64,000 bases of DNA from Clostridia bacterium. Lineage in GTDB: Bacteria > Bacillota > DTU086. Below the pieces are notes generated by a model. It searched no databases. It was not told where the DNA came from and worked only from the letters and a program-made list of their open reading frames with translations. Positions within the stretch are counted from its first letter, which is position 1, and each line of letters starts with the position of its first letter. Location of the stretch: positions 128-64,127 of the forward strand of contig JAAYIF010000025.1 in the NCBI GenBank assembly GCA_012523575.1, given 5' to 3'. A program made the position numbers and the translations under genes. This document shows positions 6,431 through 59,477 of the stretch, piece after piece.

Positions 6431-6697
6431 CTGCTTGTTGACAAACGCTATCTGCTGCAGTTTTCTCACTCCAGAACTCACGCCGGACAGCTCTAGGCAA
6501 AGCTTAAAGGCAAAACCGGACCGCCCCAAATTCGGCATCCGTGCCTCGGGTTGGGGCTGGCGCCAACCTCCTGTTGGCGCCTCCCGGTTTTGCCTTACTC
6601 TTTGCCAAGAGCTGTTAGCCGGCGTTCGTTAAGTCGTTTCGCAAACTGCAGCAGATACCTCATGAGATTTGCTAAGGCAGTTTGTCTACAGTCTAAA
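6431..6697 (-). mobile_element. MITE-like nested-palindrome element, copy 1 (longest)
   Basis: Imperfect terminal IRs (GCTTGTTGACAAAC / GTTTGTCTACAGTC), inner IR ATCTGCTGCAGTTT / AAACTGCAGCAGAT, homology to 50377-50578, 57780-57957 and 59387-59477, and a 22-bp flanking duplication. Confidence 0.75.
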
Positions 6698-6722
6698 GCG
6701 CTCGGATTTCCGAGCGCTTTTT
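6695..6722. terminator. Bidirectional terminator, right copy of the duplicated hairpin
   Basis: AAAGCGCTCGGA-TT-TCCGAGCGCTTT followed by a T-run. Confidence 0.75.
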
Positions 6723-6904
6723 AATATTAACCTGAAAACTTATGTACTTCCTTAAATATCATTGACGCCAATATTGATAGACAGCTGTTAGATGTAAGAA
6801 AAAAGATATATGAAACGGGTTTGTGGAAAGTGGGAAATAGAAGGAAAATAAATAAAATAATGAAAGATATAATATAGCCGTTGATTCAGCAGGAGGCATC
6901 CTCT

Positions 6905-7732
6905 ATGCAGCCCCAAAATGAGCAGATCCCCATGGAACACCAAGAAAGCACCTTAAATCCTTTGAAACCACCCCTAAAATGGGCAGGCGGTAAAAGGTGG
7001 CTGGTTCCCCACCTCAAACCCCTATGGGAAAAGCACCGGCACAGAAGACTGGTTGAACCATTTTGCGGTGGACTGGCTGTAACTTTAGGGCTCATGCCAT
7101 CCAAAGCGCTGCTAAATGACATAAACCCCCATGTGATAAACTTTTTTCGCTGGCTCCAGCAGGGATTGGAAATTACATTGCCCATGCTCAATGACAGGGT
7201 TACCTACTACAAATACCGGGAACGATTTAATCAACTGATAGCTGAAGGAAAGGCCCATACAAAAGAAGCCGCTGAACTTTTTTATTATCTAAACCGTACT
7301 GGATATAATGGCCTTTGCCGCTTCAACAGCAGCGGCAAATTCAACGTTCCCTTTGGAAAATATAAACAGATAAATTATAAAACCGATTTTTCAGAATACA
7401 AAAGGATATTAAAGTACTGGAAATTTACATACGGGGATTTTGAAAATGTCCAACTAAAACCCGATGACTTTGTATATGCCGATCCCCCATACGACGTGGA
7501 ATTCACCCAGTACTCCAAGAAAGACTTTAAGTGGGAAGATCAGGTGCGCCTTGCCCAATGGCTGGCAGAACATAAAGGTCCCATTGTATTATCCAATCAA
7601 AAAACCCATAGGATAGTTAAATTATATAAAGAACTTGGATTTAAAATACATTATCTTAAAGCACCCAGAATGATAAGCTGTAACGGGAACAGAACCCCGG
7701 CAACAGAAGTTTTGGCTGTAAAGGGGATATAA
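6905..7732 (+). CDS. Dam-family N6-adenine DNA methyltransferase
   Basis: KWAGGK, EPFCGG (motif I), NRTGYNGLCRFN, DPPY (motif IV). ATG 6905 follows AGGAGG at 6891-96; the ORF track starts at 6881. Confidence 0.9.
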   Translation: MQPQNEQIPMEHQESTLNPLKPPLKWAGGKRWLVPHLKPLWEKHRHRRLVEPFCGGLAVTLGLMPSKALLNDINPHVINFFRWLQQGLEITLPMLNDRVTYYKYRERFNQLIAEGKAHTKEAAELFYYLNRTGYNGLCRFNSSGKFNVPFGKYKQINYKTDFSEYKRILKYWKFTYGDFENVQLKPDDFVYADPPYDVEFTQYSKKDFKWEDQVRLAQWLAEHKGPIVLSNQKTHRIVKLYKELGFKIHYLKAPRMISCNGNRTPATEVLAVKGI

Positions 7733-7886
7733 ATTACAGCATTTTTCGGGAAAGCAGCAGTAAAGAAAAAAATTCCAGAGAAATCGTCGGGTAGTTCTAG
7801 TGTTGGTCGGGGAAACTGTAATGGCAGGAAAACCTGGATAGGAGGCGAAATAAAAAAATTGGAACAATAAGACAATGTGAGGGAAG

Positions 7887-8040
7887 ATGCGTTTTACCCC
7901 TGGCTTGAAACCCGGCGAAACCATCAATAACCAACGCCTAACTGAAAAGTTTTCCCGTATTTGCCAGGGTGACTTGCAGAGCTTCCACCAAACCAATGCT
8001 TTAGCCATTGTATCTGACCATACCCGCCGGGTTAATTGGA
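7887..8040 (+). pseudogene. 5' remnant of a probable SRA-like/HNH endonuclease
   Basis: MRFTPGLKPGETINNQRL...QG...TNALAIVSDHT resembles, from memory, the N-terminus of Firmicute HNH nucleases (PGL..G..I.N..L...F....QGGMRRS..TN.LV.VSDHT); the similarity stops just before hsdM. Confidence 0.45.
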
Positions 8041-8049
8041 GGAAGAATC

Positions 8050-9600
8050 ATGACGGAAAACACAAGCATGGATCTTACTACTCTGGAAAACTGGCTTTGG
8101 GAAGCAGCCTGTGTAATTCGCGGTGCCGTTGATGCACCTAAAGATAAAGATTACATACTGCCTTTGATTTTCTTAAAACGATTATCCGACGTATTTGAAG
8201 ATGAGATAATAAGGCTTGCCGAAGAAATCTTTGATTCAATGGAAGAAGCCCTGGAGCAGGTCGAAGAAGACCACTCCCTGGTACGCTTTTACATACCGCC
8301 CCAGGCCCGCTGGAAAGCCATATCCCGGCAGACGACCAATATCGGCGAATACCTTACTGATGCCGTGCGGGTAGTTGCCCGTGAAAACCCCAAACTCCGG
8401 GGCATTTTCGATCACGTTGATTTCAACGCTCAGATGGCCTGTCAGCCGGTTATTGATAACGACCGCTACTACAACCTGATACAAGTCCTATCCCGCCATC
8501 GTTTAGGGTTAAAAGACGTGGAAGCCGACATCCTCGGCCGGGCTTACGAGTATTTACTGCGCAAATTCGCCGAAGGTCAGGGCCAGAGTGCCGGCGAATT
8601 CTATACGCCACGGGAAGTTACCTGGTTGATGGCTTATATTTTGGAGCCCCAACCCGGCGATGAGATCTATGACCCGGCCTGCGGGTCCGGCGGCCTGCTA
8701 ATCAAAAGCGTGTTGGCTTTTAAGGAAGCCCATGGTGATGACCCCAGAATAGCACCGGTAAAGATTTATGGCCAGGAAATTAATCACACCACCTTCGCCA
8801 TGGCCAAGATGAATGCCTTTATCCATGACCTGGAGGCAGATATTCAATTGGGGGATACAATGGCCCGTCCGGCTTTTACCAATCCCGACGGATCGCTTAG
8901 AACTTTCGACAAAGTAACAGCCAATCCCATGTGGAATCAGAAATTCCCCTTAACCGTATATGAAGAAGATTCCTATAACCGTTTTGACTTCGGCGGCATT
9001 CCACCGGCATCAAGCGCTGACAGGGGCTGGGTTCAGCATATGTTCGCTTCCCTGAAAGAAAACGGCAAGATAGCCGTTGTCTTGGATACCGGTTCCGTCT
9101 CCCGGGGCAGCGGCGGCCGGAGCTCCAATCGCGAGCGAGACATTCGCAAAGTCTTCGTTGAAAAAGACTTGATAGAATGCGTCATCCTTTTGCCGGAAAA
9201 CATGTTCTATAACACCACCGCCCCAGGTATAATCATGGTTATCAATAAGGCCAAAAAGCATCCGGGGGAAATTTTATTAATCAACGCTTCCAAGATGTTT
9301 ACTAAAGGCCGCCCTAAAAACTACATGGACGACGAACATATTAAGAAGGTCTATGGCCTTTACCGGGAATGGCGAGAAGAAGAGGACTTGAGTAAAATAA
9401 TTTCAATTGAAGAAGCAATCCGCAACGATTACAACCTCAGCCCTTCCCGCTATGTATCCAATAACAATAAGGAAGAATATCAGCCTATAGAAGAAATTCT
9501 AGTCGAGCTGGCTGAAATCGAAGAAGAACGGCAAACGGTAGATAAGGAATTAAATGAGATCCTCACCAAGTTGGGCTTCGGAGGTTGGCTCAATGGATAA
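8050..9600 (+). CDS. hsdM: Type I restriction-modification methyltransferase subunit
   Basis: LENWLWEAAC, GEFYTP, DPACGSGG, ANPMW (motif IV variant). Likely ATG 8050; the ORF track starts at 8008. Confidence 0.93.
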   Translation: MTENTSMDLTTLENWLWEAACVIRGAVDAPKDKDYILPLIFLKRLSDVFEDEIIRLAEEIFDSMEEALEQVEEDHSLVRFYIPPQARWKAISRQTTNIGEYLTDAVRVVARENPKLRGIFDHVDFNAQMACQPVIDNDRYYNLIQVLSRHRLGLKDVEADILGRAYEYLLRKFAEGQGQSAGEFYTPREVTWLMAYILEPQPGDEIYDPACGSGGLLIKSVLAFKEAHGDDPRIAPVKIYGQEINHTTFAMAKMNAFIHDLEADIQLGDTMARPAFTNPDGSLRTFDKVTANPMWNQKFPLTVYEEDSYNRFDFGGIPPASSADRGWVQHMFASLKENGKIAVVLDTGSVSRGSGGRSSNRERDIRKVFVEKDLIECVILLPENMFYNTTAPGIIMVINKAKKHPGEILLINASKMFTKGRPKNYMDDEHIKKVYGLYREWREEEDLSKIISIEEAIRNDYNLSPSRYVSNNNKEEYQPIEEILVELAEIEEERQTVDKELNEILTKLGFGGWLNG

Positions 9601-10900
9601 GGAAAATAATGAGATGATTGAAGGGTATAAGGAAACGGAGATTGGGATACCACCAGAAGATTGGGAAGTGGTTAAGCTGGAAGATGTTGCACATGTAAAA
9701 GCTGGAGGACCAGCTCCACAGGGCGACCACTTCTTTGGTGGTAAAAACCCTTTTATACGAGTTCAACATATTGATGAAGTTATGAATAAGGTATCAGGAT
9801 GGAACCTTATTACAGATGAAGCCGTAAACAGGTATAACTTACAGTTGTTCCCAAAAGGAACAATTATTTTTCCTAAAAGTTGTGCATCTATTCGGTTGGA
9901 AAAACGCGCCATGCTGCCGTTTGATGCTTATATTGTCAGCCATTTATGTGCAGTGCTTCCAGCTGTTCAAAAGGTACATAACATATTTCTTTTCCATACT
10001 TTGAGGTTTGTCCGCTTTGCCGAAAGTAAATCCGATGGTTATCCAACTCTCAGTTTAGGAGAGATTAAAGATCGACTAATACCCCTCCCACCCCTCCCCG
10101 AGCAGAGAAAGATCGCCTATGTGCTTTCAACCATACAAAAAGCCATTGAACTTCAAGAAAAAATTATCGTCGCCCTCAAGGAACTGAAAAAATCTCTCAT
10201 GCGCCACCTTTTCACCTACGGCCCAGTACCTGTGGACCAGATTGACCTCATACCCTTAAAAGAAACTGAAATCGGAATGGTCCCGGAACATTGGAAAGTG
10301 ACGAAATTGGGGGAAGTAGCAAAGACCGCAAGTGGCGGAACGCCCAGTCGAAAGCATCCTGAATATTTTGGCGGCAAAATTCTTTGGGTTAAGTCAGGAG
10401 AATTGAATGACAATTCAATTAGTTGCACAGAAGAAACTCTTACAGACACAGGGCTATCAAATTCTAATGCAAAAGTTTTCCCCGAAGGTACTTTACTTAT
10501 TGCCATGTACGGTGCAACAGTTGGAAAAGTTGGCATTTTAAAATGTAAAGCTGCTACCAACCAGGCTGTTTGTGGAGTCTTTCCACACAGAGGAATTATC
10601 TCTAAATTTCTCTTTTACACAATCATTTATCGCAGGTCTGAGCTGCTGAGTAAACGATACGGTGGAGCACAGCCTAACATTAGCCAAACTGTGATAAGAG
10701 CCTTCAATATTTACATCCCCCCACTTATTGAACAACACCAAATCGCCTGTATACTTACAACTATAGACAACAAAATTAACACCGAGGAAAAACGCAAATC
10801 CACTCTCCAATCCCTCTTCCAAACTATGCTCCACCTGCTTATGACCGGCAAGGTGCGAGTTAGAGACCTGGAGGTGAAAGAAGATGCCCTTAGGCGGTGA
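9593..10900 (+). CDS. hsdS: Type I R-M specificity subunit with two target recognition domains
   Basis: Repeated conserved blocks (YKETEIG.PEDW / LKETEIG.PEHW; PLPPLPEQRKIA / IPPLIEQHQIA). ATG 9593 overlaps the hsdM stop. Confidence 0.92.
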   Translation: MDKENNEMIEGYKETEIGIPPEDWEVVKLEDVAHVKAGGPAPQGDHFFGGKNPFIRVQHIDEVMNKVSGWNLITDEAVNRYNLQLFPKGTIIFPKSCASIRLEKRAMLPFDAYIVSHLCAVLPAVQKVHNIFLFHTLRFVRFAESKSDGYPTLSLGEIKDRLIPLPPLPEQRKIAYVLSTIQKAIELQEKIIVALKELKKSLMRHLFTYGPVPVDQIDLIPLKETEIGMVPEHWKVTKLGEVAKTASGGTPSRKHPEYFGGKILWVKSGELNDNSISCTEETLTDTGLSNSNAKVFPEGTLLIAMYGATVGKVGILKCKAATNQAVCGVFPHRGIISKFLFYTIIYRRSELLSKRYGGAQPNISQTVIRAFNIYIPPLIEQHQIACILTTIDNKINTEEKRKSTLQSLFQTMLHLLMTGKVRVRDLEVKEDALRR

Positions 10901-13780
10901 ACGCTCCACTGTGCAGAATCCCTTCATCCGCTATGCCACCGAAACGGGTTGGCAGTACATAGATCCCAAAAAATTAGAAATTAGTCGTGGTGGAGTGGAG
11001 GGATTAATCCACCGCCAGGTTTTCATTAACCAGCTCCAGAAATTAAACCCAGGTGTTGTAGACCACCTGCGGGCTGAAGAAGTATTAAAACGGCTGGAGC
11101 GCATACCACCTAATATTGAAGGAAACCTCCAGGCCTGGGAATATCTTAAAGGTTTACGGACTGTATATGTTGAGACCGAAAAAAGGGAGCGTAATATACG
11201 TCTGCTGGAACTGGATAAATGGCAGGCTAACACTTTCCAGGTTACCGATGAATTCACCTTTACCAATGGCACCTATACCATCCGTGCCGATATCGTTTTT
11301 TTAATTAACGGCATCCCGTTGCTGCTGGTAGAAACAAAATCTGCCAGCGAGATTGAAGGTATCGCCAAAGCTCTGGATCAATTGCGCCGATACCACAGGG
11401 AAGCACCGGGACTCATGGCCCTTGAGCAGATATACTGCTTAACCCACCTGGTCCGTTTCTATTACGGCACCACTTGGAGTTTAAGCCGTAAAAACCTTTT
11501 CAACTGGCGAGACGAAAGCGGCGGGCAGGATTTTGAAAGTATGGTAAAAAGCTTCATCCATCCCCAGCGGGTCTTACGGGTTTTAACAGACTTAATTATG
11601 TTTGTCCGTCGGGATGACGAATTAAGCAAAGTAATATTAAGACCCCACCAAATGCGGGCCATCGGCCGGGTCTTAAACCGCGTCCTAGATCCCGAGAAAA
11701 AACGGGGTCTGGTTTGGCACACCCAGGGTTCAGGTAAAACATACACCATGATCACCGTCGCCAAAAAGCTCATTGAAAATCCCCGTTTCAATAATCCTAC
11801 TGTTCTCATGCTTGTCGACCGCAATGAGTTGGAACAGCAGCTTTTTGCTAATTTGTCCGCCTGTGGTTTCGGTATGGTCGAGATAACTCGGAGCAAACGC
11901 CACCTTCAGGAGCTTTTGGCCTCTGATCGTCGCGGCTTAATTGTAAGCATGATTCATAAGTTTGACGACATTCCGGCCAATATCAACTGCCGGGACAACA
12001 TTTTCGTCCTGATAGATGAAGCCCACCGCACTACCGGCGGAAACCTCGGCAACTACCTCATGGGTGCCCTCCCCAATGCAACATACATCGGTTTTACTGG
12101 CACTCCCATTGACCGCATTTCCCACGGTAAGGGCACTTTTAAAGTCTTTGGCTGTGATGACCTGCCCCATGGTTATTTGGACAAATACAGCATAGCCGAA
12201 TCCATAGAAGACGGAACAACTGTACCACTTCACTATTCCCTGGCTCCTAACGAATTGAGAGTGGACCGTGAAACATTAGAGGAAGAATTTCTAAACCTTG
12301 CAGCAGCCGAAGGAGTCAGCGACATTGAAGAATTAAACAAAGTCTTGGAAAAAGCCGTTACCCTAAAGAATATGTTAAAAAACAGAGAAAGAGTAGAGGC
12401 CATCGCTGCCTATGTCGCCCGCCATTACCGGGATTATATTGAACCGCTGGGTTATAAAGCCTTCCTGGTAGCAGTAGACCGCGAGGCCTGCACTCTGTAT
12501 AAAAAAGCCCTTGATAAATACCTACCGCCAGAGTATTCCGCAGTGGTTATCAGCCGTGCACAAAATGACCCTCCAGAACTTACCCGTTATTATCTATCCG
12601 AAAATGAAGAAAAAGAAATACGCAAGGCTTTCCGCAACCCCAATGAGCTGCCCAAAATCCTCATTGTCACTGAAAAGCTTCTTACCGGGTATGATGCCCC
12701 GGTGCTGTACTGCATGTATTTGGATAAGCCTATGCGGGATCATGTTCTTTTGCAGGCCATTTCCCGGGTAAACCGTCCTTATGAAGATGAAAACGGTCAC
12801 CAAAAACCGGCCGGTTTTGTCCTTGACTTTGTTGGTATTTTTGAAAACTTGGAGAAGGCTTTGGCCTTTGATTCCAAAGACATAGAAGGAACCATTATAG
12901 ATTTCGAAATCCTCAAAAACCGCTTTCAGGAGTTAATGGCTGAAGGTAGGAACAAATACCTTGCCATTTTTTCCGGGTATAAACAGGATAAGGCAGCGGA
13001 AAAAGCTCTGGAACATTTCCGTGAGCATAAAACACGGCAGGAGTACTATATTTTTTTCAAAGAGCTGGCCAATCTTTTTGAAATTATTTCGCCGGACCCC
13101 TTTTGAGGGAGTACCTGGACGATTACGACCAGCTGGCCCGACTTTACCGGCTCTTGCGTTCCACTGAGCCGGGGGTCAACCTGGACTATGAACTGATGCG
13201 CAAAACAGCGCGACTTGTTCAGGAACATACCATCCCGGGTGCCATCCAGGATACGGTAACGGTATATAAGATCAACGAGGAAGTCCTGGACAAACTGGCT
13301 GAAAGTAAGGCCAGTTACACCGTTGAAGTGTTTAACCTGCTGAAAAGCATAGAAAACACCATTTCAAAAAAGAAACGAGAAGCTCCTTATCTGCTTTCTA
13401 TAGGCGAAATGGCAGAAAGAATAGCTAAAGCCTACCAGGAAAGGCAACTAAGTACTCAGGAGGCCTTGCGCCGGTTAGAAGAGCTAATTAAAGAATATCT
13501 GGACTCCGAAAAAGAGCGGGAAGAAAAAGATATGGCACCGGAAACTTATGCTGTATATTGGTATTTAAAAAGGGAGCAAATAAAAGAGGCCGAAACGATA
13601 GCCCGGAATATGGCCAAAGCCTTTGATTATTATCCGTATTGGCAGTAAAGCGAAAAACAAGAACGTAAAATTATAATGGAGTTATACAAAAACCTAAAAA
13701 AAACAGGAGTAAAAACTGGAACAAAGATGAAAGAAATCGTAGAACAAATGATGCAACTGCTTAAGGGGGCAAAACGATGA
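10884..13780 (+). pseudogene. hsdR: Type I restriction endonuclease subunit R, disrupted twice
   Basis: Motifs D-X-NGIPLLLVETK, HTQGSGKT, DEAHR, FTGTP. Frameshift at CCCC-TTTT-GAGG (~13097-13106; one more T gives PF-LREY); in-frame TAA at 13646-48, after which the frame stays open to TGA 13778-80. Confidence 0.9.
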
Positions 13781-14109
13781 GCAAGGTATTTGATAAAACT
13801 TCAGCTTCGGCATCCCTTGATAAACTGGAAGAAATTATTCCGGAGACAGTTTTCCGGACAGAAGTTATCACCTGGGCCAAGAGGATTGGGGTTGAACCAA
13901 AAGAAATACATATCCGCAGCATGAAACGCAAATGGGCAAGCTGCTCCAGTAAAGGGCGCTTGACCTTTGATATAGATTTGTTAAAACAGCCCACAGCCTT
14001 CCGGGCTGAGGTAATTGTCCATGAATTGCTACATTTAAAAATACCCAATCATGGGCCGTTGTTTAAAGCGATGTTTAAAGCATATCTGGCACAGTATGGG
14101 ATTAAATAA
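13777..14109 (+). CDS. YgjP/DUF45-like (M48/SprT-like) zinc metalloprotein
   Basis: MKRKWASCS...HELLHLKIPNHGPLF; ATGA overlap with the natural end of hsdR. Confidence 0.8.
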   Translation: MSKVFDKTSASASLDKLEEIIPETVFRTEVITWAKRIGVEPKEIHIRSMKRKWASCSSKGRLTFDIDLLKQPTAFRAEVIVHELLHLKIPNHGPLFKAMFKAYLAQYGIK

Positions 14110-14229
14110 GATTGTTTGATCCGCACTTACGGTAACCAGTTGCATGCTACAGCTATTTAAATAAAACTGGCTGACTCTCCTAGCATGACTTTACAATTCT
14201 CTCTTTAACAACATCTTTTTCTGCAACCT

Positions 14230-14806
14230 GCCCGATAGTCCACGTGACTGACGGTGACGGCACCATTTCTTCCCTGTTAAAGGATGAGAATGCCATGACC
14301 AGGGCGGTTAATGGTATAATGAGAGAAGCGGTACTATACCAAGGAGTAAACCTGGACTTTGAGGGTTTGGGTTACCGAGATGACGGTGAGCAGTTAAAGG
14401 TGGTGCGGGACGCTTTTACCAGGTTCGTCCTACTCTTAGCGAAACAGGTTAAGGCTGCTAACCTCACACTAACCCTCACCCTCCACGCCCCAAACAGCGC
14501 CTATCAGGGTTACGATTACAAGGCGCTGGGAGAATTAGCCGACCGGATTACATGGCCTACGACTATGGCTCCACGCCGGAGCCAGTAAGCCTTGTCACTC
14601 AAGCAGTGGAGATAGCTAGGGTTAATGTCCCATCGGAAAAGCTGGTACTCGGGATTTCTGCCCCCACGGAAACAGCGGAAAGCATTCTAACGAAAGTAGG
14701 CATTGCCAAGCGGTACGGGCTTGACGGGATCGCCATTTGGCGGTTAGGTCTGGTGACCAGCGAGATGTGGAGCGTACTGCGAACAACGGTTGAAATTAAC
14801 AGGTGA
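14230..14806 (+). pseudogene. Glycoside hydrolase family 18 C-terminal fragment (5'-truncated, frameshifted)
   Basis: GVNLDFE catalytic motif, GYDYKALG, frameshift at DRIT/MAYDY (~14550), KLVLGI, GIAIWRLG. Confidence 0.8.
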
Positions 14807-14815
14807 GGGTTGACC

Positions 14816-15825: not shown

Positions 15826-16030
15826 CAACGTGTCAGTTGCCTTATAAAACTTTGATGGGAGGGGTTCTTTCCTGCCTGGAGAAGGTAAAGGTTAATCTTG
15901 CTGGCAGGGTCGTTGAAAGATTTTGTTGCGGAGAGCGGAACAAAGTAGGCCATTTATCCGTCTATTATTATTAAGAGATTTTTTAAAGTAGGTTTTTAGT
16001 GATAAGAAATTTTTTTGGGGGCACGGAAAA

Positions 16031-16987: not shown

Positions 16988-17034
16988 AACTGGAGACTAA
17001 AAAAGAAGCGAGGGGTCTAAAACCCCCTATTTCA

Positions 17035-17781: not shown

Positions 17782-17792
17782 TATTCTCGCTC

Positions 17793-18399: not shown

Positions 18400-18530
18400 C
18401 CAGAAAGACGCTGATATAAAAAATAAAAGCCCGGAAGAGCAGAATCGCATCATCCAGACTTACGTTAAAAGAGTAATCGTTTATGATGATAAAATTGACA
18501 TTGATACGATTGTGGATATGACTGGTGGAG
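18400..18530 (+). pseudogene. C-terminal remnant of a large serine recombinase
   Basis: DIKNKSPEEQNRIIQTYVKRVIVYDDKIDIDTIVDMTGGGG resembles serine-integrase C-termini and runs into the ssrA 3' end; no catalytic N-terminus is present. Confidence 0.65.
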
Positions 18531-18872
18531 GCGGGGGGAATCGAACCCCCGTCCGAAGGAACACCCACAAGAGCTTCTACCAGGATAGTCCCCGTTTTGT
18601 TGTTCGCCGGAATGCCTCCCGGAGACAGGATGCCTACCGACTAGCTCACTGGAATTTCCCTTAAGCTCCCGTGAGCGAGAAGCTTAAGGTAGCCCGCTCA
18701 GTCGACACCCAAACCAGCCTAGCGGACGTCAGCAGGTTGGATGAGCCGCTTTTACTAAGCAGCTAATGCGTAATTTTCGTTGGCACTTATTAGGTTCCAC
18801 CGTTTTACGAGTCGGTGGGATCTCGCCTGGCAACTCTTGCTCGTGCTTCCCCCGTCGAAACCTTTCGCCCCC
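18523..18872 (-). ncRNA. ssrA: tmRNA
   Basis: 5' GGGGGCG / 3' CGCCTCCACCA acceptor stem with G3.U, T-loop GGTTCGATTCC, tag ORF GCC AAC GAA AAT TAC GCA TTA GCT GCT TAG TAA = ANENYALAA** (18784-18752), next to smpB. Confidence 0.97.
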
Positions 18873-46321: not shown

Positions 46322-46325
46322 TTCC

Positions 46326-48380: not shown

Positions 48381-48433
48381 AGCAACTAACCCTCCCTGGT
48401 ATGTTATATATAATCTTCTTCCCAGCAGAAAGC

Positions 48434-49525: not shown

Positions 49526-49545
49526 GCTTTCACCCCTAAAAACCC

Positions 49546-50328: not shown

Positions 50329-50376
50329 GGTAATTCCTCCTTTGTTCCTGCAGAAAAACCAAACCTATACTTTATC

Positions 50377-50578
50377 AGACGGTCGAGAATCATCTTAAGA
50401 ATTCCCACGGGGTTCTGTGGCGGTTTGCGAGCGACTTAACGACCGCCGGCTAAAACCGGGAGGTGCGAGCAGAAGATGAGCGCCAGCCCCAGTTTCTCGC
50501 ATGGACGTCGAATTTAGAGATGTCCGTCGTGAGTTCGCAAGTCAAGAAAACCGCAGCAGACACCCTTTGTCAACAAGC
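50377..50578 (+). mobile_element. MITE-like element copy 2, inside the catabolic operon
   Basis: Shares GACTTAACGA, CGCCGGCTA, AAAACCGGGAGG, GCGCCAGCCCCA, CGTGAGTTC and the terminal TTTGTCAACAAGC with copy 1 (reverse complement). Confidence 0.7.
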
Positions 50579-50597
50579 TGACTTCATTCCAATTAGA

Positions 50598-51590: not shown

Positions 51591-52588
51591 TATATCACCC
51601 CCTGCACCTTAAAACAGGCTACCTGGTGTCCATCTCCCACATCCTTTAACAGGGGCTTTTCCTCACGGCACTTTTCTTCCGACAGCCTGCACCTGGGATG
51701 GAAACGGCAGCCTTTGGGGGGAGAAAAGTAATCGGGAATACGGCCGTAAATACCCTCGGCTACCCCGCCCCCGGTAAGCCTGGGAACGGATTCTAAAAGA
51801 CCCAGGGTATAAGGATGAAGAGGATTTTTAAAAAGCTCTTTGGTCTCTGCGGTCTCCACAATATTGCCCGCATACATAACATATATCCTGTCGGTCATCT
51901 CCCGGGCAACACCCAAAGAATGGGTAATCATTATCAGTGACATTCCTTTCTTTTCCACCAAGCCCCTTAAGAGCCTGTGCACCTGGTCCAGAATGGTAAC
52001 ATCCAGGGATGTTCCCGGTTCATCGGCGATCAATAGCTCCCTTTCTGTCACAATAGCCATGGCAATACAGATTCTCTGCTTCATACCGCCGCTAAGCTGA
52101 CCGGGATAGCTGTTCAATATTCTTTCGGGGTCAGGTATGTAAACCTCCCCAATGGCTTTAACGGCAAGCTCCTTAATCTCTTCCTTGCTCCTTCCCTTCC
52201 CGCTATCCGAATATCTGATTACATCAAACATTTGGGTTCCAATGGTAAAAACGGGATTTAACGCAGCTGCGGGCTCTTGAAAGATCATGGAAATCCCCTG
52301 GGTGCGCACTTTGTTTAACTTTTGGGGCTTCATCTTTAAAATGTCTTCCCCGTGATAGAAAATTTCCCCTTTGGGGACAACGGCATTCTCGGGTAGAATC
52401 CTGAGCACTGTTCGCATGGTGGTGGTCTTTCCGCAACCCGCTTCTCCCACCAGTCCCACCTTTTCACCCTTTCCGACCCATAGGTTTACACCGTCCAGCA
52501 CCTTGGCAAAGCCATCATAGGTACGGTAGTGCACATGGAGATCCTTTATATTAAGAATAGAGTCATTTTTATTCACGATCATACTCAC
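51590..52588 (-). CDS. Oligopeptide/dipeptide ABC transporter ATPase (OppD/DppD-like)
   Basis: GEAGCGKTT, LSGGMKQR, ADEPGT, HPYT, GCRFHPRC. Confidence 0.93.
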   Translation of the reverse strand: MSMIVNKNDSILNIKDLHVHYRTYDGFAKVLDGVNLWVGKGEKVGLVGEAGCGKTTTMRTVLRILPENAVVPKGEIFYHGEDILKMKPQKLNKVRTQGISMIFQEPAAALNPVFTIGTQMFDVIRYSDSGKGRSKEEIKELAVKAIGEVYIPDPERILNSYPGQLSGGMKQRICIAMAIVTERELLIADEPGTSLDVTILDQVHRLLRGLVEKKGMSLIMITHSLGVAREMTDRIYVMYAGNIVETAETKELFKNPLHPYTLGLLESVPRLTGGGVAEGIYGRIPDYFSPPKGCRFHPRCRLSEEKCREEKPLLKDVGDGHQVACFKVQGVI

Positions 52589-53486
52589 CCTTTGCCATCA
52601 TATCGCGTATTCCGTCCCCCATAAGGTTAAAGCCCAGTATAGTAACGGCAATGGCCAGGGATGGGAAAACAGTCATCCACCAAAGATCGGGCATATAGCG
52701 GGTCCCGTCTGAAACCATCTGGCCCAAAGCGGGGGTGGGAGGCTGCTCTCCTAACCCCACAAAGCTTAAGGAAGCTCCGATGAGGATAACCCATCCTACG
52801 TCCAGAGCCATTTTTGTAAAAATGGGCGAAAGACAGTTGGGCAGTATTTCCCGGAAGATAATGTGAAGTCTCCCGGCCCCAATAAGCTCTGACGCCTTGA
52901 CAAAATACTCATTGCGCGTGGAAGTGGCCATTCCGTAAACAAGCCTCGTATACCACGGCCACCACATAACGGTAACGGCAATCATTGCGTTGGTGAGATT
53001 GGGCTTTAGTACCGCTGCAATGGCCAAAGCCAGAAGCAGCGGAGGCACCGAAAGAAATATATCCGTAACCCTCATGATAACCGTATCCAAAAAAGTACCC
53101 TGGTAGTATCCGGCAATGAGCCCTAGGAAAACCCCTATGGGCACGGCAATGGCCAGAACCAGCGCCGCCATATAAAGGGCTCCCCGGAAAGCAAAAATTA
53201 TCCTGGAAAATATATCCCTGCCGAAATTATCCGTACCGAACCAGTATTCGGCGCAGGGAGCAGTACCGGCATTGGCATAGTCCACAAATTTCCCCGCATG
53301 GTGAGGATAGGGAACAATTAGAGGTGCAAAAATGGCCGAAAAAACTATAATGAGGACAATAATAAGCCCCACCACAGACAGCTTATTGCGGGAAAATTTA
53401 TACCAATTCTTTTTTACCCCTGATTTTACCCTTACGGAAAAAGATAGAGCAGGTACTTCCTGTTTTGACTGAACGCTTATGTTCAT
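52569..53486 (-). CDS. Peptide ABC transporter permease (OppC/DppC-like)
   Basis: FGTDNFGRDIFSR, EAA-like loop YFVKASELIGAG. Confidence 0.92.
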   Translation of the reverse strand: MNISVQSKQEVPALSFSVRVKSGVKKNWYKFSRNKLSVVGLIIVLIIVFSAIFAPLIVPYPHHAGKFVDYANAGTAPCAEYWFGTDNFGRDIFSRIIFAFRGALYMAALVLAIAVPIGVFLGLIAGYYQGTFLDTVIMRVTDIFLSVPPLLLALAIAAVLKPNLTNAMIAVTVMWWPWYTRLVYGMATSTRNEYFVKASELIGAGRLHIIFREILPNCLSPIFTKMALDVGWVILIGASLSFVGLGEQPPTPALGQMVSDGTRYMPDLWWMTVFPSLAIAVTILGFNLMGDGIRDMMAKGEYDRE

Positions 53487-54508
53487 GAGCTTCTTCCTCC
53501 CAATCGAATCCGCGGATCTAAGTAGGCCACAATCAAATCCACAAGAATATTTACCAAAACGAAAATTAACCCAAAAACAATGATGACAGCGGAAATGGCG
53601 TTGAGATCCTTCCGCAGCATAGCTTCCATTCCGTAGCGGGAAATACCCGGCCAGTTGAAGATCACTTCCACCAAAAAGGCATTGCTCATCAAAGAGGCAA
53701 TGTCAAGCCCCATTACCGATACCGCAGGGATTAAAGAAGGCTTAAGAAGATACTTACCCGTAATTACATGATCGGGCATGCCAAATCCCACCGCTGCAGC
53801 CAGATAATCCTTACCCATGTTCTCCGTCATGGCAGAACGAACTATCCGTGCTTCCTGAAACAGAGGCCCCACGGCCAGAGCCAGGGCAGGTAAAATAAGG
53901 TGCTTTAAAGCATCAAAGAAAACGTCCAACTGCCCGGTCAAAAGGCTGTCTATGGTAATCAGCCCCGTTATGGTGGGAGGCGGCTGTATCCCCGCGCTCA
54001 GGCGTCCCAATACGGGAATAATCGGCCAGATATATCCAAAAAGAAGCAGAAAAATCACCGCCAGCACAAAGGAAGGAACGGCCACTCCCGTATACGCCAT
54101 TACTCTAATAAAGCTATCCACCCACGTATCCTTGTATCGGGCAGCCAGAGCTCCGAAAAAAATAGAAAAAACAATCACAAATAATGCCGACACAAGTACC
54201 AATTCCAGGGTTGCGGGAAGAAATTCCGCAATATCTTCCACCACATTTCGCTTAGTAATCAACGACTTTCCCAGATCCCCCGTGGCAACCCCTTTGATCC
54301 AATAGAAGTACTGAACGGGCAGGGATTTGTCAAGATGCATTTCTTCCCTCAGGGCATCCACGGCAAACTGAGGAGCCCTGGGTCCCAAAGCCAATCTTGC
54401 GGGATCCCCAGGAACCACCCGGGCAATAATGAAAATCACAATGGACAGTCCCAAAAGGACGAAAATTGAATAAAGAAGTCTTTTTATCACATAAGAGCTG
54501 AGTTTCAT
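53483..54508 (-). CDS. Peptide ABC transporter permease (OppB/DppB-like)
   Basis: PGDPA, GDLGKS, PATLEL, VEVIFNWPGI. Confidence 0.92.
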   Translation of the reverse strand: MKLSSYVIKRLLYSIFVLLGLSIVIFIIARVVPGDPARLALGPRAPQFAVDALREEMHLDKSLPVQYFYWIKGVATGDLGKSLITKRNVVEDIAEFLPATLELVLVSALFVIVFSIFFGALAARYKDTWVDSFIRVMAYTGVAVPSFVLAVIFLLLFGYIWPIIPVLGRLSAGIQPPPTITGLITIDSLLTGQLDVFFDALKHLILPALALAVGPLFQEARIVRSAMTENMGKDYLAAAVGFGMPDHVITGKYLLKPSLIPAVSVMGLDIASLMSNAFLVEVIFNWPGISRYGMEAMLRKDLNAISAVIIVFGLIFVLVNILVDLIVAYLDPRIRLGGRSS

Positions 54509-54552
54509 ATAACCACCCCATTCGCGTCTCCGGCATTAGCTACAAGAAAATC

Positions 54553-54590
54553 CGAGGGTGGCTTCCCCAAAGCCCTCGGGGAAACCACCC
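54553..54590. other. Intercistronic stem-loop between the solute-binding protein and permease genes
   Basis: GGGTGGCTTCCCC / GGGGAAACCACCC stem; overlapping alternative CCGAGGG / CCCTCGG stem. Confidence 0.55.
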
Positions 54591-54608
54591 CTTAAGAAAC
54601 CATAACAA

Positions 54609-56273
54609 TTACTGGGGAATCCGATCGGGATACACTTTGAAATCGCGGAAATAGAACATATATCCCATCACCGGAGTTACAGGCTCATCCTTTTTAATCC
54701 TTTCGGCAGCGGGCCACATTACGTAATCAGCCTGATATGCCCGCTTTTCAGCCTGATCAAAGGCCCAAATGGTGGGAGCCAGATCTACAATCTTCTTCTG
54801 GATGGCACCGTACTTAGGCAAACGCTCCTCAAAATTGATGGTGCCGATGGCATCCTCGATCATTGCATCCAGCTCCTTATCCTGCAGCCACTCGCACTGC
54901 TCCCATGTTCCCGTGGATTTTGAATGGTAACGGGATTCGAATATGGTACCCGCCTCACCGTAATGGGGTGAAACAAATACCAGGCTTGCATTGGGAGTAC
55001 TCTCGGGCTTAGCAATTTGATCCACAAAGGACAGCCATGGAACCTTCACAACATCCACGTTAATTCCCAGTTCCTGAGCGTTGGACTGGAGCATAAGGGC
55101 AACCTTTTCCTCATCGGGTACTTCCGCTATCCACGCCAGCTCCACGGTATATTGATCAAGACTTCCCGCATACTTGGACTTTGCCAGCTCCTCCTTGGCT
55201 TTCTCCAGGTTCTGCTCAAAGACGGTAAGATCCTTGCTGAAGCCCGGCAAACTCTCGGAAATTGGCCCCACAGTCTTCTTGCATCCCGGGAACAAGCTGT
55301 TTACCGCAGTATCATAATCAAAGAGGTATGTTAGGGCTTTGCGGAAATGCACATCATCAGTGGGTGCCTTTTTGGTATTGAGCATGATGTTGAGAATGGT
55401 ACCTGTAAAGGCAGCATTGACTTCCACACCCTCAATGTTGTCCAAAGCTTCAAGGGCTTCCTTGGTCTGCCACTGGTCTGTGATTTCCAGCTCCCTTCTA
55501 GTCATAAGGGTCCTAATGGTAGAAGGAGATGTGGTGCCAATGATCTTGAAAGCCTCGGGAGCATCTTCCTCCCAACCACCCCAATAATCATCAAACTTCA
55601 CTGCATAAAGGTATTCCTGCTTCTTCAGTTCCTTAACCATGTAGGGGCCGCTGCCCGCATCGTTGGTTATGAGCCATTCTTTACCGTAATCACCCATTTC
55701 ACCGTATGGCCCATCTCCCAGATTGGATACAACCTGCTCTTTGTTCAGAATATAAAGCCTTACCAGGGTCTGCAAAAACGGTCCAAAGGGTTTTTTCAGC
55801 TTAAACTGCACCGTATAATCATCAAGGGCCTTTACGTCCTCCACCACTTCTGTGAACAAATAGGCGTAGCCCTCTCCCATGGTAAGCATTCTCTCCATGG
55901 AGAAGACCACGTCTTCGGCGGTAAGCTCATCACCGTTGTGGAATTTAACTCCCTTTCTCAGGTTAAAGGTCCATGTGAGCCCATCGCTGCTGGTTTCCCA
56001 GTCGGTAGCAACCCAAGGTTTTACACTTCCATCGTGGTCCGGGAAAACCAAGGTATCGTAAATATTGACCAGGGCTATGGAACTGGCATAATCGGAACCC
56101 ACTCCGGGATCTATATTGGGAACATTGGCCTCACTGATGCGTATAATTCTTTCTCCCCCCTGGCTTGTTCCTTCCTGATCACCGCCTCCGCCGCATCCCG
56201 CAAGGACAACCGCTGTAAAAAATACCAGGGCGATCATCGCAGCCAGCTTTTTATGCTTAACAAGATTCCCCAT
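54609..56273 (-). CDS. ABC solute-binding lipoprotein, family 5 (peptide/nickel type)
   Basis: Lipobox LAGC, NIYDTLV, TFNLRKGVKFHNG..TAEDVVFS, GSGPY; ATG 56273. Confidence 0.92.
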   Translation of the reverse strand: MGNLVKHKKLAAMIALVFFTAVVLAGCGGGGDQEGTSQGGERIIRISEANVPNIDPGVGSDYASSIALVNIYDTLVFPDHDGSVKPWVATDWETSSDGLTWTFNLRKGVKFHNGDELTAEDVVFSMERMLTMGEGYAYLFTEVVEDVKALDDYTVQFKLKKPFGPFLQTLVRLYILNKEQVVSNLGDGPYGEMGDYGKEWLITNDAGSGPYMVKELKKQEYLYAVKFDDYWGGWEEDAPEAFKIIGTTSPSTIRTLMTRRELEITDQWQTKEALEALDNIEGVEVNAAFTGTILNIMLNTKKAPTDDVHFRKALTYLFDYDTAVNSLFPGCKKTVGPISESLPGFSKDLTVFEQNLEKAKEELAKSKYAGSLDQYTVELAWIAEVPDEEKVALMLQSNAQELGINVDVVKVPWLSFVDQIAKPESTPNASLVFVSPHYGEAGTIFESRYHSKSTGTWEQCEWLQDKELDAMIEDAIGTINFEERLPKYGAIQKKIVDLAPTIWAFDQAEKRAYQADYVMWPAAERIKKDEPVTPVMGYMFYFRDFKVYPDRIPQ

Positions 56274-56478
56274 GATTACTCTCCCTTCTGTATAGAATAA
56301 AAAACCGGTCAAAAATCCATTGCAGCCCTAATCCTTGGAGCTCACCCCCCCGTAAAACTAAATCATCAAATTTCACCACTTTACAGCACTAAACGACTTA
56401 AAACAAATACAATTTTAGTATCTTCGTTATTTAAGCAGTTTCAACCTTTATATAAAAAATACAAACATCTAAAAAAAA

Positions 56479-56497
56479 ATTGTCCAAAATGGACAAT
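56479..56497. promoter_or_regulatory. Candidate PucR-family operator
   Basis: Perfect inverted repeat ATTGTCCA-AAA-TGGACAAT (TTGTCC-N5-GGACAA) ~200 bp upstream of the SBP start. Confidence 0.6.
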
Positions 56498-56570
56498 CAG
56501 ATCGTGATTTTTCGTTATTTTTGCTATATATAATTAAAAGGAAGTTTCCATAGGGAAAATTTCTGTCATA

Positions 56571-57655
56571 TTATATCATAAATTCCCTTCCCAGGGCATC
56601 GGCGCCCAAAAGGGAATCTAGCACCATTTCCGGATTAACCGGGAAGGGCATATTGTGAATGGTTTCCTTTTCAGCACATGCAGCCTCCGCAGCCACCATC
56701 AATCTATCCCTTCCTGCATCCTTCAAACCCATCTGTTCCAACGTCACCGGAAGCCCTATGGAAATACAGAATTCAATTACTTCCTGAATTTCTTCCGGGG
56801 CACGGTCTTCCATCACCATTTGGGCGATAACGGCAAAGGCAACTTTTTCCCCGTGGTATAAATTTTTAGTTTCCTCAAGCCTGGTCAATCCGTTGTGTAT
56901 GGAATGGGCTGCCGCGAGGCCCCCGGTTTTACCGCTTAAAAGGATGTTGGCTTCAATCACCTTTTCCACCGCCGGGGTAACGGCATTGGCTTCAACGGCA
57001 AGCTTGGCTTCATACCCGTTTTCCAAGAGGGTTTCAAAGCATGCTTGGGCCATGGTCAGGGTGGTAACTGTGGAAAGTCCACCGGAAATATGTTCAGAAG
57101 TGCCCCTGTAAGCAGCTTCCGCTTCAAACTTAGCGGCCAGGGCATCTCCCATACCCGCCACCAAAAAGCGCACCGGAGCTTCGGCTATTATTCTGCTGTC
57201 TACAAGCACCACATCGGGATTTTTGGGAAGGTAAAGGTATTCCTCGAACTCACCTTCGGGAGTATAGATCACAGACAGAGCACTAACCGGGGCATTGGAT
57301 GATGCCGTGGTAGGAACGGTTATAACGGGAACGGACATGAAATGGGCTACGGCCTTAGCTGTATCAAGGGTTTTCCCGCCTCCGATTCCCACTATCACAT
57401 TAAAGTCTTCATCCCGCCCCTTTTTCACAAGGCGGTTGATTTCTTCTTTGGAGCACTCACCGTTAAATATTTCAAAAAAAAAAATTCAGTATCGTCCACC
57501 GCTTCCCTCAGACGCTGTTCCATAAGGGACATAACCCTTACGTCCACCACAGCCATAGTTTTTTCGCCAAGAATTTTTGCATACTTTCCCAATTCCATTA
57601 CAGCATTGGGTCCCTGGACGTATTTCGAAGGACTTTCTACGACTTTAACTGCCAT
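56571..57655 (-). pseudogene. gldA: Glycerol dehydrogenase split by a frameshift in a T11 homopolymer
   Basis: N-terminal ORF MAVKVVESPSKYVQG. T9 or T12 at 57474-84 restores F-E-IFNGECSKEEINRL joined to GIGGGKTLD, PTTASSNAP, AGMGDAL, AAAHSIHNG, HGEKVAF. Confidence 0.88.
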
Positions 57656-57779
57656 TAATTGCGCCTCCTTGTATCGTATGGATGATTGAACTGTTTAAAA
57701 AGTCCTTTTTGCTTTTTTTTATAATCCCACCATTTTTTTAAAATATTCTTTGAAATTTTACTTAAAATTACACAGATTA

Positions 57780-57957
57780 CTGATGAAGGGGACTTGCTGC
57801 AGTTTGCGAAACAACTTAACGAGCGCCGATTAAAACCGGGAGGCGCGAGCAGAAGGTGAGCGCCAGCCATTCTCTCGCACGGACCCAAATATGGGGCGGC
57901 CCGGTTTTAAACAGCATGAGTTCGCAAGTAAAGAAAACTGCAGCAGATGCCCTTTTA
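57780..57957 (+). mobile_element. MITE-like element copy 3, immediately downstream of the MFS gene
   Basis: TGCTGCAGTTTGCGAAAC...AAAACCGGGAGGCGC...GGGGCGGCCCGGTTTT...GAGTTC...AAAACTGCAGCAGA, colinear with copies 1 and 2. Confidence 0.75.
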
Positions 57958-59355
57958 TTATTCATCCTCTTCTTCCTCCCTGTATATATCCCCCCGGGCC
58001 AGGGAAGCAAAGATCCCTACGAAACAAAGGAACGCAAACATTAAATAGCAAAACTTGGAACTTTTTAGTAGCATTCCATGGGGAACCCGGGAAAGCTCCA
58101 CATTGCCCACAAAATGGGTCATAACAAGGGTCACAAGGCCCATGCTGATGCTCTGCCCCACCAGCCTCATGGTGGAAAGGGTAGAGGACGCAATGCCGTA
58201 ATACTTTTTCTCCACTGAACTCATTATTGCAATGGTATTGGGAGATGAAAACAGCGCCAGCCCCAGCCCCAAAAGCACCAGCCCCCCTTCCACCATAAGA
58301 AGGGGTGTATTTTTATCAATGAAATAAAATAAAACGATAGACAGGGTGGTAACGGCCATCCCGAAAGAAGCCACTTTTCTGGGCTCAATGTCGTCCGAAA
58401 GATTCCCCGCAATGGGCGAAAAAATCACCATCACCACGGGCTGGAACAGAAGAATCAAACCCGCCGTCTGGGACGAAAAACCCCGAACCAGCTGTAAATA
58501 CAGGGACAAAAGATATCCCACCGCAAAGGTGGAGCTGTAGTTGATCAGAGCGGCAAGGTTGGAAAAGGCAAAGGCGGGATTTTTAAAAAGGCTAAGATTA
58601 AAAAGGGGCATGTCTGCTCTCTGTTCAAACTTCAAAAAGAATCCCAGATTAACCAGCCCTAAAAGCATAAGGTACTTAGCCCATGGGGAAGAGGTAATAC
58701 CCGTAACCCCGTACATAAACAAAACAAGCCCCGCGGAATAAAGAATCGCCCCTGTCAAATCAAAGTTTTCTCCCTTTGCTCCTACCCATTCGCCTTTAAA
58801 CTTCAAAAAGGTTGAGGCTGCCGTAATACTTCCCATAAAAGCGGGAATATAAAAGATAGATTCCCAGCCGAAATAATGATTCAAAGCTCCCCCCAGGGAA
58901 GGTCCCGCAGACAGCCCTAAGTACACGGCAGCGGCATTTATCCCCAAAACCCTGCCCCGTTTCCAGGGAGGAAACACCGAAGTAAGGATGGCTATGGAAG
59001 TGGCAAATATCATGGCGCTTCCCAAACCCTGAAGCACCCGGAAAAAGATAAATACCCCGATGGAATGGGACAGGCTGCATAAAAACGAGGAAACGCTGAA
59101 AACAAAAAGGCCCATGGAAAAAATTTTTCTTCTGCCCATAATGTCAGAAATTCTCCCAATGGGCACCAAAAAGGCAGCGGAAGCCAAAATATAGCTGGTA
59201 ACCACCCAGCCCATGGTCAAAGCCCCGGCATTAAACACCCTGCCGATGGTGGGAACAGCCAGGTTAATGGAGCTGCCCATAAAGGCTGTCAAAAAAGAAG
59301 CAGTGGTTGAGGCTGCTAAAGAGTACCTCTCTATTTTTTCCTTTTCTCTTTCCAT
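57958..59355 (-). CDS. MFS transporter, 14-TM DHA2 (EmrB/QacA-like)
   Basis: GRISDIMGRRK (motif A), FRVLQGLGSAM, GPSLGG (motif C); ATG 59355. Confidence 0.9.
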   Translation of the reverse strand: MEREKEKIERYSLAASTTASFLTAFMGSSINLAVPTIGRVFNAGALTMGWVVTSYILASAAFLVPIGRISDIMGRRKIFSMGLFVFSVSSFLCSLSHSIGVFIFFRVLQGLGSAMIFATSIAILTSVFPPWKRGRVLGINAAAVYLGLSAGPSLGGALNHYFGWESIFYIPAFMGSITAASTFLKFKGEWVGAKGENFDLTGAILYSAGLVLFMYGVTGITSSPWAKYLMLLGLVNLGFFLKFEQRADMPLFNLSLFKNPAFAFSNLAALINYSSTFAVGYLLSLYLQLVRGFSSQTAGLILLFQPVVMVIFSPIAGNLSDDIEPRKVASFGMAVTTLSIVLFYFIDKNTPLLMVEGGLVLLGLGLALFSSPNTIAIMSSVEKKYYGIASSTLSTMRLVGQSISMGLVTLVMTHFVGNVELSRVPHGMLLKSSKFCYLMFAFLCFVGIFASLARGDIYREEEEDE

Positions 59356-59386
59356 ACTTTCACCTTCAAACAAACAGCATTGATCA

Positions 59387-59477
59387 TGCCCGTTTTGCCC
59401 ATAACACCGCGCCCAGAGCTGTCCGGCGTAAGTTCTGGATTAAGCAGACTGCCTCAGAACCCCTATGTCCAACAAGC
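59387..59477 (+). mobile_element. Half copy (right arm) of the MITE-like element, upstream of the MFS gene
   Basis: AGAGCTGTCCGGCGTAAGTTCTGGA matches copy 1 (AGAGCTGTCCGGCGTGAGTTCTGGA); ends TGTCCAACAAGC. Confidence 0.65.

Follow-up and report, generated by a model that had tools for sequence, protein, structure and literature searches.

Repeats with a TwoAYGGAY RNA core in a Clostridia genome are probable IS1182-type miniature elements inserted in terminator hairpins

Introduction

What kind of element is a short, almost perfectly palindromic sequence that recurs between the genes of a clostridial genome: mobile DNA, a structured RNA, or both? The question is raised by a stretch of 64,000 nucleotides (nt) from a Clostridia bacterium (assembly GCA_012523575.1, contig JAAYIF010000025.1, positions 128 to 64,127), which was analysed as a whole and is referred to below as the window. 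Its host is an uncultured digester anaerobe with nearest protein relatives in metagenome-assembled genomes (MAGs) of Dehalobacterium, Desulfotomaculia and Peptococcaceae. A first-pass annotation of the window described four nested-palindrome copies with ends resembling IS1182, favoured a non-autonomous element while leaving room for a structured RNA or single-stranded DNA element, and suggested that the family may be undescribed. [quoted passage not shown]

Both halves of this identity have precedents. The 2010 description of TwoAYGGAY drew on human-gut metagenomes, Clostridia and gamma-proteobacteria and presented a motif with two AYGGAY loops and often a very long closing stem; P1 stems of at least 24 bp were mentioned and no function was assigned (Weinberg et al. 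2010, PMC2864571). CsrA binding has since been proposed for the motif (PMC4333381), and Rfam places it in the Csr/Rsm clan CL00106. As for the transposons, terminator hairpins are where the insertion sequence (IS) ISCbo5, an IS1182-family member of Clostridium botulinum group III, inserts (PMC3098183), and they are also the target, in either orientation, of IS1272 (PMC4923244, PMC5678879); direct repeats around IS1182 elements range from 2 to 60 bp (PMC7335449), and MITEPye1 is an IS1182-derived MITE of Paracoccus (PMC11578231). The window repeats thus bring together an RNA family and a type of MITE, from an established IS family, that were both on record; of value here are the connection between them and the clear signature of whole-hairpin duplication.

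Results

Four copies of one repeat family

An nhmmer profile built from 17 full copies found four related sites in the window and no other match at E<=1. Reading and alignment of these sites showed a single colinear family, in agreement with the four homologous copies first annotated. The copies, their ends and the duplications around them are as follows.

6431-6694, minus strand (sense is minus), 264 nt: copy 1, a full-length element and near-perfect nested palindrome (nhmmer match 6433-6694, E 1e-86)
6679-6694, minus strand: 5' terminal inverted repeat of copy 1, in sense AGACTGTAGACAAAC (family consensus CAGACTGTAGACAAAC)
6431-6446, minus strand: terminal inverted repeat at the 3' end of copy 1, CTGCTTGTTGACAAAC as reverse complement (family consensus CAGCTTGTTGACAAAG)
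6406-6430, plus strand: target-site duplication left of copy 1, a terminator-like direct repeat consisting of the ymaF terminator hairpin without its T-tract
6695-6719, plus strand: target-site duplication right of copy 1, the same ymaF hairpin followed by TTTTT, an intact intrinsic terminator
50376-50580, plus strand, 205 nt: copy 2, short subfamily with a further internal deletion, both ends present (CAGACGGTCGAGAAT ... TTTGTCAACAAGCTG) (nhmmer match 50377-50580, E 7e-30)
50369-50375, plus strand: left target-site duplication of copy 2, 7 bp, ACTTTAT (a single ACTCCAT at the empty site in L065, described below)
50581-50587, plus strand: right target-site duplication of copy 2, 7 bp, ACTTCAT
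57774-57957, plus strand: copy 3, short subfamily, with CAGATTACTGATGAAG at its 5' end and a decayed 3' end that adjoins the stop codon of a major facilitator superfamily (MFS) gene (nhmmer match 57793-57955, E 7e-28)
59380-59478, plus strand: copy 4, a long-subfamily element of which just the 3' half is present, with the terminus ...TATGTCCAACAAGCCG (nhmmer match 59391-59477, E 4e-11, model positions 178-262)

These coordinates keep the annotated copies and shift several of their boundaries: copy 2 now spans 50376-50580, copy 3 starts at 57774 and copy 4 covers about 59380-59478. The elements measure about 180-265 nt, are intergenic, and lack coding capacity and a transposase, as expected of the non-autonomous type first proposed. 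Every inverted repeat listed earlier for the fullest copy is present. The terminal repeat given as TGT(T/A)GACAAA is likewise real, and its true length is 16 nt (CAGnnTGTnGACAAA). Across the family the 16-nt inverted repeats can be written as CAGnCTGTnGAnAAA, with elements spanning CAGACTGTCGACAAAC to TTTGTCAACAAGCTG; CAGACTGTCGACAAAC and CAGCTTGTTGACAAAG agree at 12/16 positions. The annotation had missed both flanking duplications, the 25-nt direct repeat around copy 1 (6406-6430 and 6695-6719, 96% identity), which is a duplicated terminator hairpin, and the 7-bp duplication at copy 2.

Copies 2 and 3 are members of a shorter subfamily, one without the middle stem. The short-form junction CGCCGATT|AAAACCGG recurs in contigs of anaerobic-digester metagenomes, and the short form is therefore a subfamily and not the product of two independent deletions. 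Copies 3 and 4, in the same orientation, bracket an MFS transporter gene (57958-59373, minus strand; whole block 57774-59478). This block is bounded on the outside by one 5' end and one 3' end of the element, giving it a composite-transposon-like layout; no flanking duplication was seen around it.

Element ends and target choice match the IS1182 family

The ends of the repeats are those of IS1182-family transposons, bearing out the resemblance noted in the first-pass annotation at 15-16 of 16 positions. The 16-nt 5' consensus CAGACTGTAGACAAAC is identical (16/16) to the right ends of four IS1182-family ISs (L044, L048, L053 and L060). ISEfa7, an Enterococcus faecalis IS and others agree at 15/15 positions (15/16 for ISEfa7 against the consensus); ISEfa7 and its E. 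faecalis relative end in CAGACTGTAGACAAAG. A further IS1182-family IS (L042) matches at both termini, its left end CAGCTTGTCGACAAAG and right end CAGACTGTAGACAAAA agreeing with the 3' and 5' element ends, respectively, at 15/16 positions each. Reference transposases were assigned to the family by NF033551 score, record annotation and tblastn.

Autonomous members of the family also share the repeats' choice of target. ISCbo5 on plasmid p3, whose open reading frame (ORF) scores 472 bits against NF033551 IS1182 (cut-off 270), has the ends CAGGCTGTTGATAAAC and CAGATTGTTCAAAAAG and lies between perfect direct copies, 30 bp long, of a hairpin. A scan with an alignment of three transposases recovered 31 further IS1182 loci in viral contigs; both ends could be placed for 17 of the ISs, which lay between the copies of a duplicated whole hairpin in 12 cases and between two different hairpins in 5. 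Together with ISCbo5, 13 of 18 autonomous IS1182 elements carry the hairpin-duplication signature.

The window elements and IS1182 ISs such as ISCbo5, ISEfa7, IS1272 and their relatives therefore have in common the 16-nt terminal repeats, a preference for terminator-like stem-loops that leaves the whole hairpin duplicated on both sides (PMC3098183), and a variable duplication length, 7-30 bp here against 2-60 bp in the family (PMC7335449), a range into which the 7-bp and 25-bp duplications of the window fit. They differ in size and content: the ISs are 1.4-1.7 kb long and encode a transposase, whereas the elements have no such gene and an unrelated interior. In addition, IS1272 is reported to delete its target hairpin (PMC4923244, PMC5678879), whereas the present elements duplicate it. 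Another close counterpart is MITEPye1 of Paracoccus yeei, which is likewise small, ORF-less, multi-copy and intergenic, with IS1182-type terminal repeats, direct repeats, a hairpin fold and presumed mobilisation in trans (PMC11578231). MITEPye1 differs in its 4-bp duplications and its alphaproteobacterial host, and neither terminator insertion nor a conserved cross-phylum RNA motif was reported for it (PMC11578231).

Several observations on IS1182 ISs themselves deserve mention. At the left ends of five (L029 35706-35739, L031 307-352, L033, L040 and L042), the terminal repeat is followed after 3-20 nt by its inverted copy or by a hairpin with a T-tract. Such an IS starts with a terminator-like palindrome of its own, a possible seed for fully palindromic MITEs. 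In L036 (1073-2660) an IS1182 element lies inside the left-end palindrome of another IS1182-type end, duplicated as AGCGTGTAGACAAAGTCTACACGCT on both sides, which indicates that IS1182 end hairpins can themselves serve as targets. Finally, a contig of about 1.6 kb with an IS1182-type transposase reached k-mer depths of 1016, 598 and 128 in three digester metagenomes, where the window flanks stood at about 6 in the sample with 1016. This contig, whose ends could not be read, is a candidate partner only, and none of the 120 relatives listed for the L042 transposase carries peptides of this abundant digester IS.

The core is the TwoAYGGAY RNA

On its minus strand, copy 1 contains a complete TwoAYGGAY RNA.

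6474-6631, minus strand: core of copy 1, Rfam RF01731 (TwoAYGGAY RNA), full model 1-168, 69.5 bits, E 7.5e-12
6559-6581, minus strand: hairpin 1, in sense GGCGCCAAC-AGGAG-GUUGGCGCC, with GGA in the loop (GGA columns invariant in 17/17 copies)
6523-6557, minus strand: hairpin 2, GCCCCAA...UUGGGGC with inner GGCA-CGGA-UGCC; its loop ACGGAU fits AYGGAY

The curated gathering score of RF01731 is 43 bits, and 10 of 15 further copies from other sources also pass it (43.7-71.4 bits), always on the same strand. Copies 2 and 3 gave no RF01731 match even at E<=10, in wide and narrow searches alike, and copy 4 is likewise without a match to the model. Because the core of the repeat matches an RNA published in 2010 (PMC2864571), and because IS1182-derived MITEs are themselves known (MITEPye1, PMC11578231), the earlier suggestion that the family may be undescribed no longer holds.

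The resemblance extends over the whole motif: copy 1 and most full copies elsewhere score above the gathering threshold across the entire model on one strand, and the elements have the two terminal hairpins with GGA loops and the very long closing stem. Most copies also have the tandem G-A pairs of hairpin 1. The elements depart from the published description in several respects. Whereas loop 2 of copy 1 fits AYGGAY, loop 1 is CAGGAG, or AUAGGAU (UAGGAU) in relatives, so that GGA is kept and the flanking Y is not; GGA is invariant in both hairpin loops of all 17 copies. Window copies 2-4 do not match the model. Moreover, the published motif is an RNA of unassigned role described without terminal inverted repeats, target duplications or mobility.

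Pairing points to a constraint on one strand

Copy 1 folds into one end-to-end stem topped by two hairpins (-142.4 kcal/mol, z-score -11.45, 0/200 shuffles as good), the architecture given in the first-pass annotation, and has no wobble pairs. Copies 3 and 2 fold more weakly (z-scores -5.5 and -2.4). Over the 17 copies, the closing stem spans the whole element with 74 consensus pairs, and standard pairs make up 96% of their cells. In ten pairs both sides had changed, compared with 5.0 +/- 1.4 in shuffles (0/500 as many) and 0-4 when partners were slid; the copies are related, so these pair counts are not independent. In the structure predicted for the sense strand, G-U pairs outnumber A-C pairs, which are G-U pairs on the other strand, by 69 cells in 28 pairs to 13 cells in 9 pairs (p = 0.003). 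The GGAs of both loops vary little or not at all, and the same holds for the sequence linking the two hairpins and for two stretches of the outer stem that are unpaired. The large excess of G-U over A-C pairs and the conserved loops and unpaired stretches argue that a constraint acts on one strand and goes beyond the needs of a double-stranded inverted repeat. For the core, this points to a constraint that is strand-specific and probably at the RNA level.

These data bear on the strongest alternative, in which the upkeep of the long stem and the core has solely a DNA-level reason: an extruded cruciform would join the element ends and mimic the stem-loop junction preferred by IS1182-type transposases, with no RNA function. 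That this transposase family targets stem-loops (PMC4923244) is in keeping with the idea, as are the IS1182 left ends that carry the end and its inverted copy as a small palindrome, copy 1, which reads as a perfect palindrome with zero wobble pairs, and an insertion orientation that is random relative to host transcription. A cruciform, however, requires both strands to pair, so that G-T and A-C should be equally frequent, in contrast to the 28 and 9 pairs observed. A stem requirement alone also cannot account for loops (with their invariant GGA) and unpaired internal loops being the most conserved parts, and the Rfam model scores one strand only. We regard an explanation by cruciform extrusion alone as possible, though on balance unlikely. 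The structured-RNA alternative raised by the first-pass annotation thus gains from the RF01731 core, the compensatory changes and the strand-biased wobbles, while what it was set against also holds, the elements being genuine MITEs as well.

Copies have moved as discrete units

A scan of 185,579 species genomes with a 3'-end pattern identified five copies in the MAG Clostridia bacterium 41_269, with 80-85% identity to copy 1 and with flanks that have no homology to the window. Matches of the same scan outside the Clostridia MAG (L002 and L007) were rejected as chance occurrences inside coding DNA. In all, one Clostridia MAG holds at least eight copies; a metagenome scan found further copies in bioreactor assemblies, and there are many in metagenomes. 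The copies of the Clostridia MAG, of the bioreactor metagenomes and of Pelotomaculum lie in unrelated contexts. Identity between copies reaches 84-95% across unrelated contexts and organisms; for example, copy 1 is 94% identical to a copy (L023) in a different genomic context. Truncated relics of the element exist. In four digester metagenomes, element k-mer depth was 10-40 times that of the flanks, and many contigs break inside the element. A BLAST search of copy 1 against 72,556 plasmids gave no match, and element pattern scans of viral contigs found none.

A direct duplication of the flanking sequence surrounds 12 of 14 complete copies from several organisms. In most cases it comprises a whole stem-loop of 18-27 nt that is specific to the locus, and non-duplicated controls score far lower. 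The flanking hairpins are direct copies, not inverted ones, except at one ambiguous locus (L003). At this locus (6272-6638) the MAG copy sits in a terminator beside a 5S rRNA gene (RF00001 at 6575-6638). A solo 60-nt 5' element end also lies beside a hairpin in another sequence (L011, 6691-6749).

Empty sites complete the picture. The orthologous site lacks copy 2, precisely, in two assemblies from the European Nucleotide Archive (L065 and L066), in which the adjoining racemase and ATP-binding cassette (ABC) ATPase genes are 88-96% identical to those of the window. The spacer between these genes is 58 nt in the relatives; in the window it holds copy 2 between the 7-bp repeats that are single in the relatives. 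Homology of the window to L065 stops at 50371 and resumes at 50581, and the matching L065 positions, 2457 and 2459, are contiguous. A second filled/empty pair consists of copy L019b, in L019, and its empty counterpart in L014. For copy 1, no empty site was found and no joint was present in the four metagenomes; a search of the protein collection for YmaF to locate such a site yielded no close orthologue, the best being 54% identical. In a more distant relative (L067, DYEX01000164.1, 75% racemase identity), a diverged palindromic element lies downstream of the racemase gene at 3330-3620. This element is similar to a second subfamily of Pelotomaculum (GCGAACGACTTGCG...GGAGCACTGGAGTGAGCGTGG) and seems to have a disrupted core.

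It could be argued that the repeats are ordinary chromosomal genes for TwoAYGGAY small RNAs, for instance CsrA sponges, that were duplicated, lie near terminators by chance and are not mobile. Membership of the Csr/Rsm clan in Rfam, the proposed binding of CsrA (PMC4333381) and the presence of the element in RNA contigs (below) accord with this idea. It does not accommodate terminal repeats identical to transposon ends, duplicated hairpins that are locus-specific, a precise empty site with a 7-bp duplication at copy 2, truncated relics, or highly similar copies in unrelated contexts and organisms, and we consider it highly improbable. Scarcely credible is movement as single-stranded DNA by an HUH enzyme (RAYT or TnpA-Y1), as for REP/REPIN-like or IS200/IS605-type palindromes: the hairpin-rich palindromic structure, strand-asymmetric pairing and multiple copies would fit, but HUH elements lack target-site duplications and terminal inverted repeats, both of which are present here and match the DDE family, and no HUH gene was seen in any element locus among the repeated proteins screened.

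Published TwoAYGGAY members include the same elements

The 2010 TwoAYGGAY alignment, of which a part was available to us, itself contains elements of this kind. In two Pelotomaculum thermopropionicum rows the motif is arranged as hairpin | CAGACUGAAGACAAAC ... UUUGUCAACAACCUG | same hairpin, and these sequences are the same kind of element as the window copies. The Pelotomaculum element shares only ends and core with the window copies yet has the same fold (z-score -9), and its end agrees at 15/16 positions with the left end of another IS1182 element (L064). Within the part of the alignment covered, the four 9-nt end strings used as queries occur only in the Pelotomaculum rows. The Psychromonas rows seen there have different, conserved flanks around TwoAYGGAY. 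In the supplement (PMC2864571), the part seen shows that the copies of the gamma-proteobacterium Psychromonas ingrahamii are also multi-copy, with long conserved flanks and repeated hairpins, e.g., GUUACUUUUCUUU...AAAGAAAAGUAAC. Flanks of another kind suggest that a different repeat carries the same core in Psychromonas. The transposon interpretation therefore covers Clostridia-type TwoAYGGAY members only.

Among the literature naming TwoAYGGAY, we found no paper that links the motif to mobile DNA. The link proposed here, that Clostridia-type TwoAYGGAY RNAs are IS1182-type MITEs inserted in terminators, was not found in the literature searched.

Discussion

By examining a palindromic repeat in its genomic context, we connected a conserved RNA with a class of transposon. 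In the proposed sequence of events, an IS1182-family transposase would mobilise the elements in trans, attacking each strand at one foot of a hairpin that is extruded or breathing. These cuts would be near each other in space and 18-30 bp apart in sequence, and gap repair would then duplicate the whole hairpin; at sites without a hairpin the duplication would be short, such as the 7 bp of copy 2. Once inserted, the core is predicted to be constrained as a single strand, most probably RNA. At sense insertions, this RNA may be made by read-through from the neighbouring gene and terminate at the second hairpin copy. Read-through RNA is expected since the U-tract is lost from the upstream copy of the hairpin and retained in the downstream one. 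The RNA is most plausibly a putative binding module for a GGA-loop protein such as CsrA, in line with the published hypothesis of CsrA binding (PMC4333381).

Several observations weigh against this account, on the side of the transposon as well as of the RNA. As first annotated, the window contains no transposase, and tblastn with IS1182 transposases together with comparison of repeated proteins revealed none in the window or in any of 27 element loci. No repeated proteins are shared among the element loci, and the cognate partner transposase was not identified. Comparison of the element with 40 IS loci shows no similarity beyond the 16-nt ends. The TwoAYGGAY motif occurs in 0 of 20 sampled IS1182 ISs, so that these ISs do not account for the core, and a plain MITE model needs no conserved core. 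Psychromonas TwoAYGGAY copies, with their different flanks, indicate that the MITE interpretation may not cover the whole Rfam family, as far as the partial alignment shows. With regard to strand constraint, the G-U count relies on a structure predicted on that same strand, and compensatory changes in a palindrome could stem from DNA-level homogenisation rather than selection. Transcription, by contrast, counts in favour of the account: four digester metatranscriptomes have contigs with family members, among them a 147-nt piece that matches 6395-6541 exactly, and no coverage of the adjacent ymaF. These contigs are unstranded, however, and may include DNA. A promoter scan at copy 1 found no promoter-like site, and the window holds no csrA-like ORF. 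Relative to the terminator T- or A-tract, about four insertions are sense, four antisense and five at bidirectional terminators. This mixed orientation, which agrees with the report on IS1272 (PMC4923244), means that read-through would not always give sense RNA.

What might the core do for the element or its host? It may be a functional module spread by the transposon. In one form of this idea, an RNA made as a 3' untranslated region (UTR) extension between the two hairpin copies would bind a GGA-loop protein such as CsrA and act as a mobile, dispersed sponge for this regulator; in another, the core would serve as a single-strand structure in cis for the IS1182 machinery or a host factor. We advance the functional module as a speculative and rather doubtful proposal. 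The elements are like CsrB/RsmZ RNAs, also of CL00106, in that each element displays two GGAs in hairpin loops, with a spacing that would suit a single CsrA dimer (for the link, see PMC4333381). They are unlike them in offering only two sites per RNA and in existing as dozens of dispersed transposon copies instead of one or two regulated genes. Should the functional-module proposal be true, a cross-phylum structured RNA would owe its distribution to hitch-hiking on a terminator-seeking MITE.

Identity of its Clostridia-type members with IS1182-type MITEs explains why TwoAYGGAY, which has stood in Rfam since 2010 as a conserved RNA without an assigned function, is patchily distributed, occurs in many copies and has so long a closing stem. 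It also cautions against taking the genomic context of TwoAYGGAY as cis-regulatory. Duplication of a whole terminator stem-loop is an unusual outcome of transposition and supports structure-directed target choice by IS1182-family transposases. For genome annotation, each insertion makes two terminators from one and can lengthen 3' UTRs.

Neighbouring features of the window

Beside copy 1 lies a restriction-modification island (6881-13106) that consists of a D12 methyltransferase resembling Dam (6881-7732) and of a type I system in which HsdM is at 8008-9600, HsdS at 9554-10900 and HsdR at 10884-13106. A fragment of a YgjP-like peptidase (13777-14109) follows the type I system. The transfer-messenger RNA (tmRNA) gene is at 18523-18872 on the minus strand (RF00023, 210.8 bits); judged by ORF sizes and order alone, smpB, rnr, gap, pgk, tpi, pgm and eno appear to follow it. 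The YmaF-family gene whose terminator received copy 1 (5883-6398) contains a low-complexity stretch at 6031-6137, rich in Lys, Glu and Asp and with a period of 9 nt.

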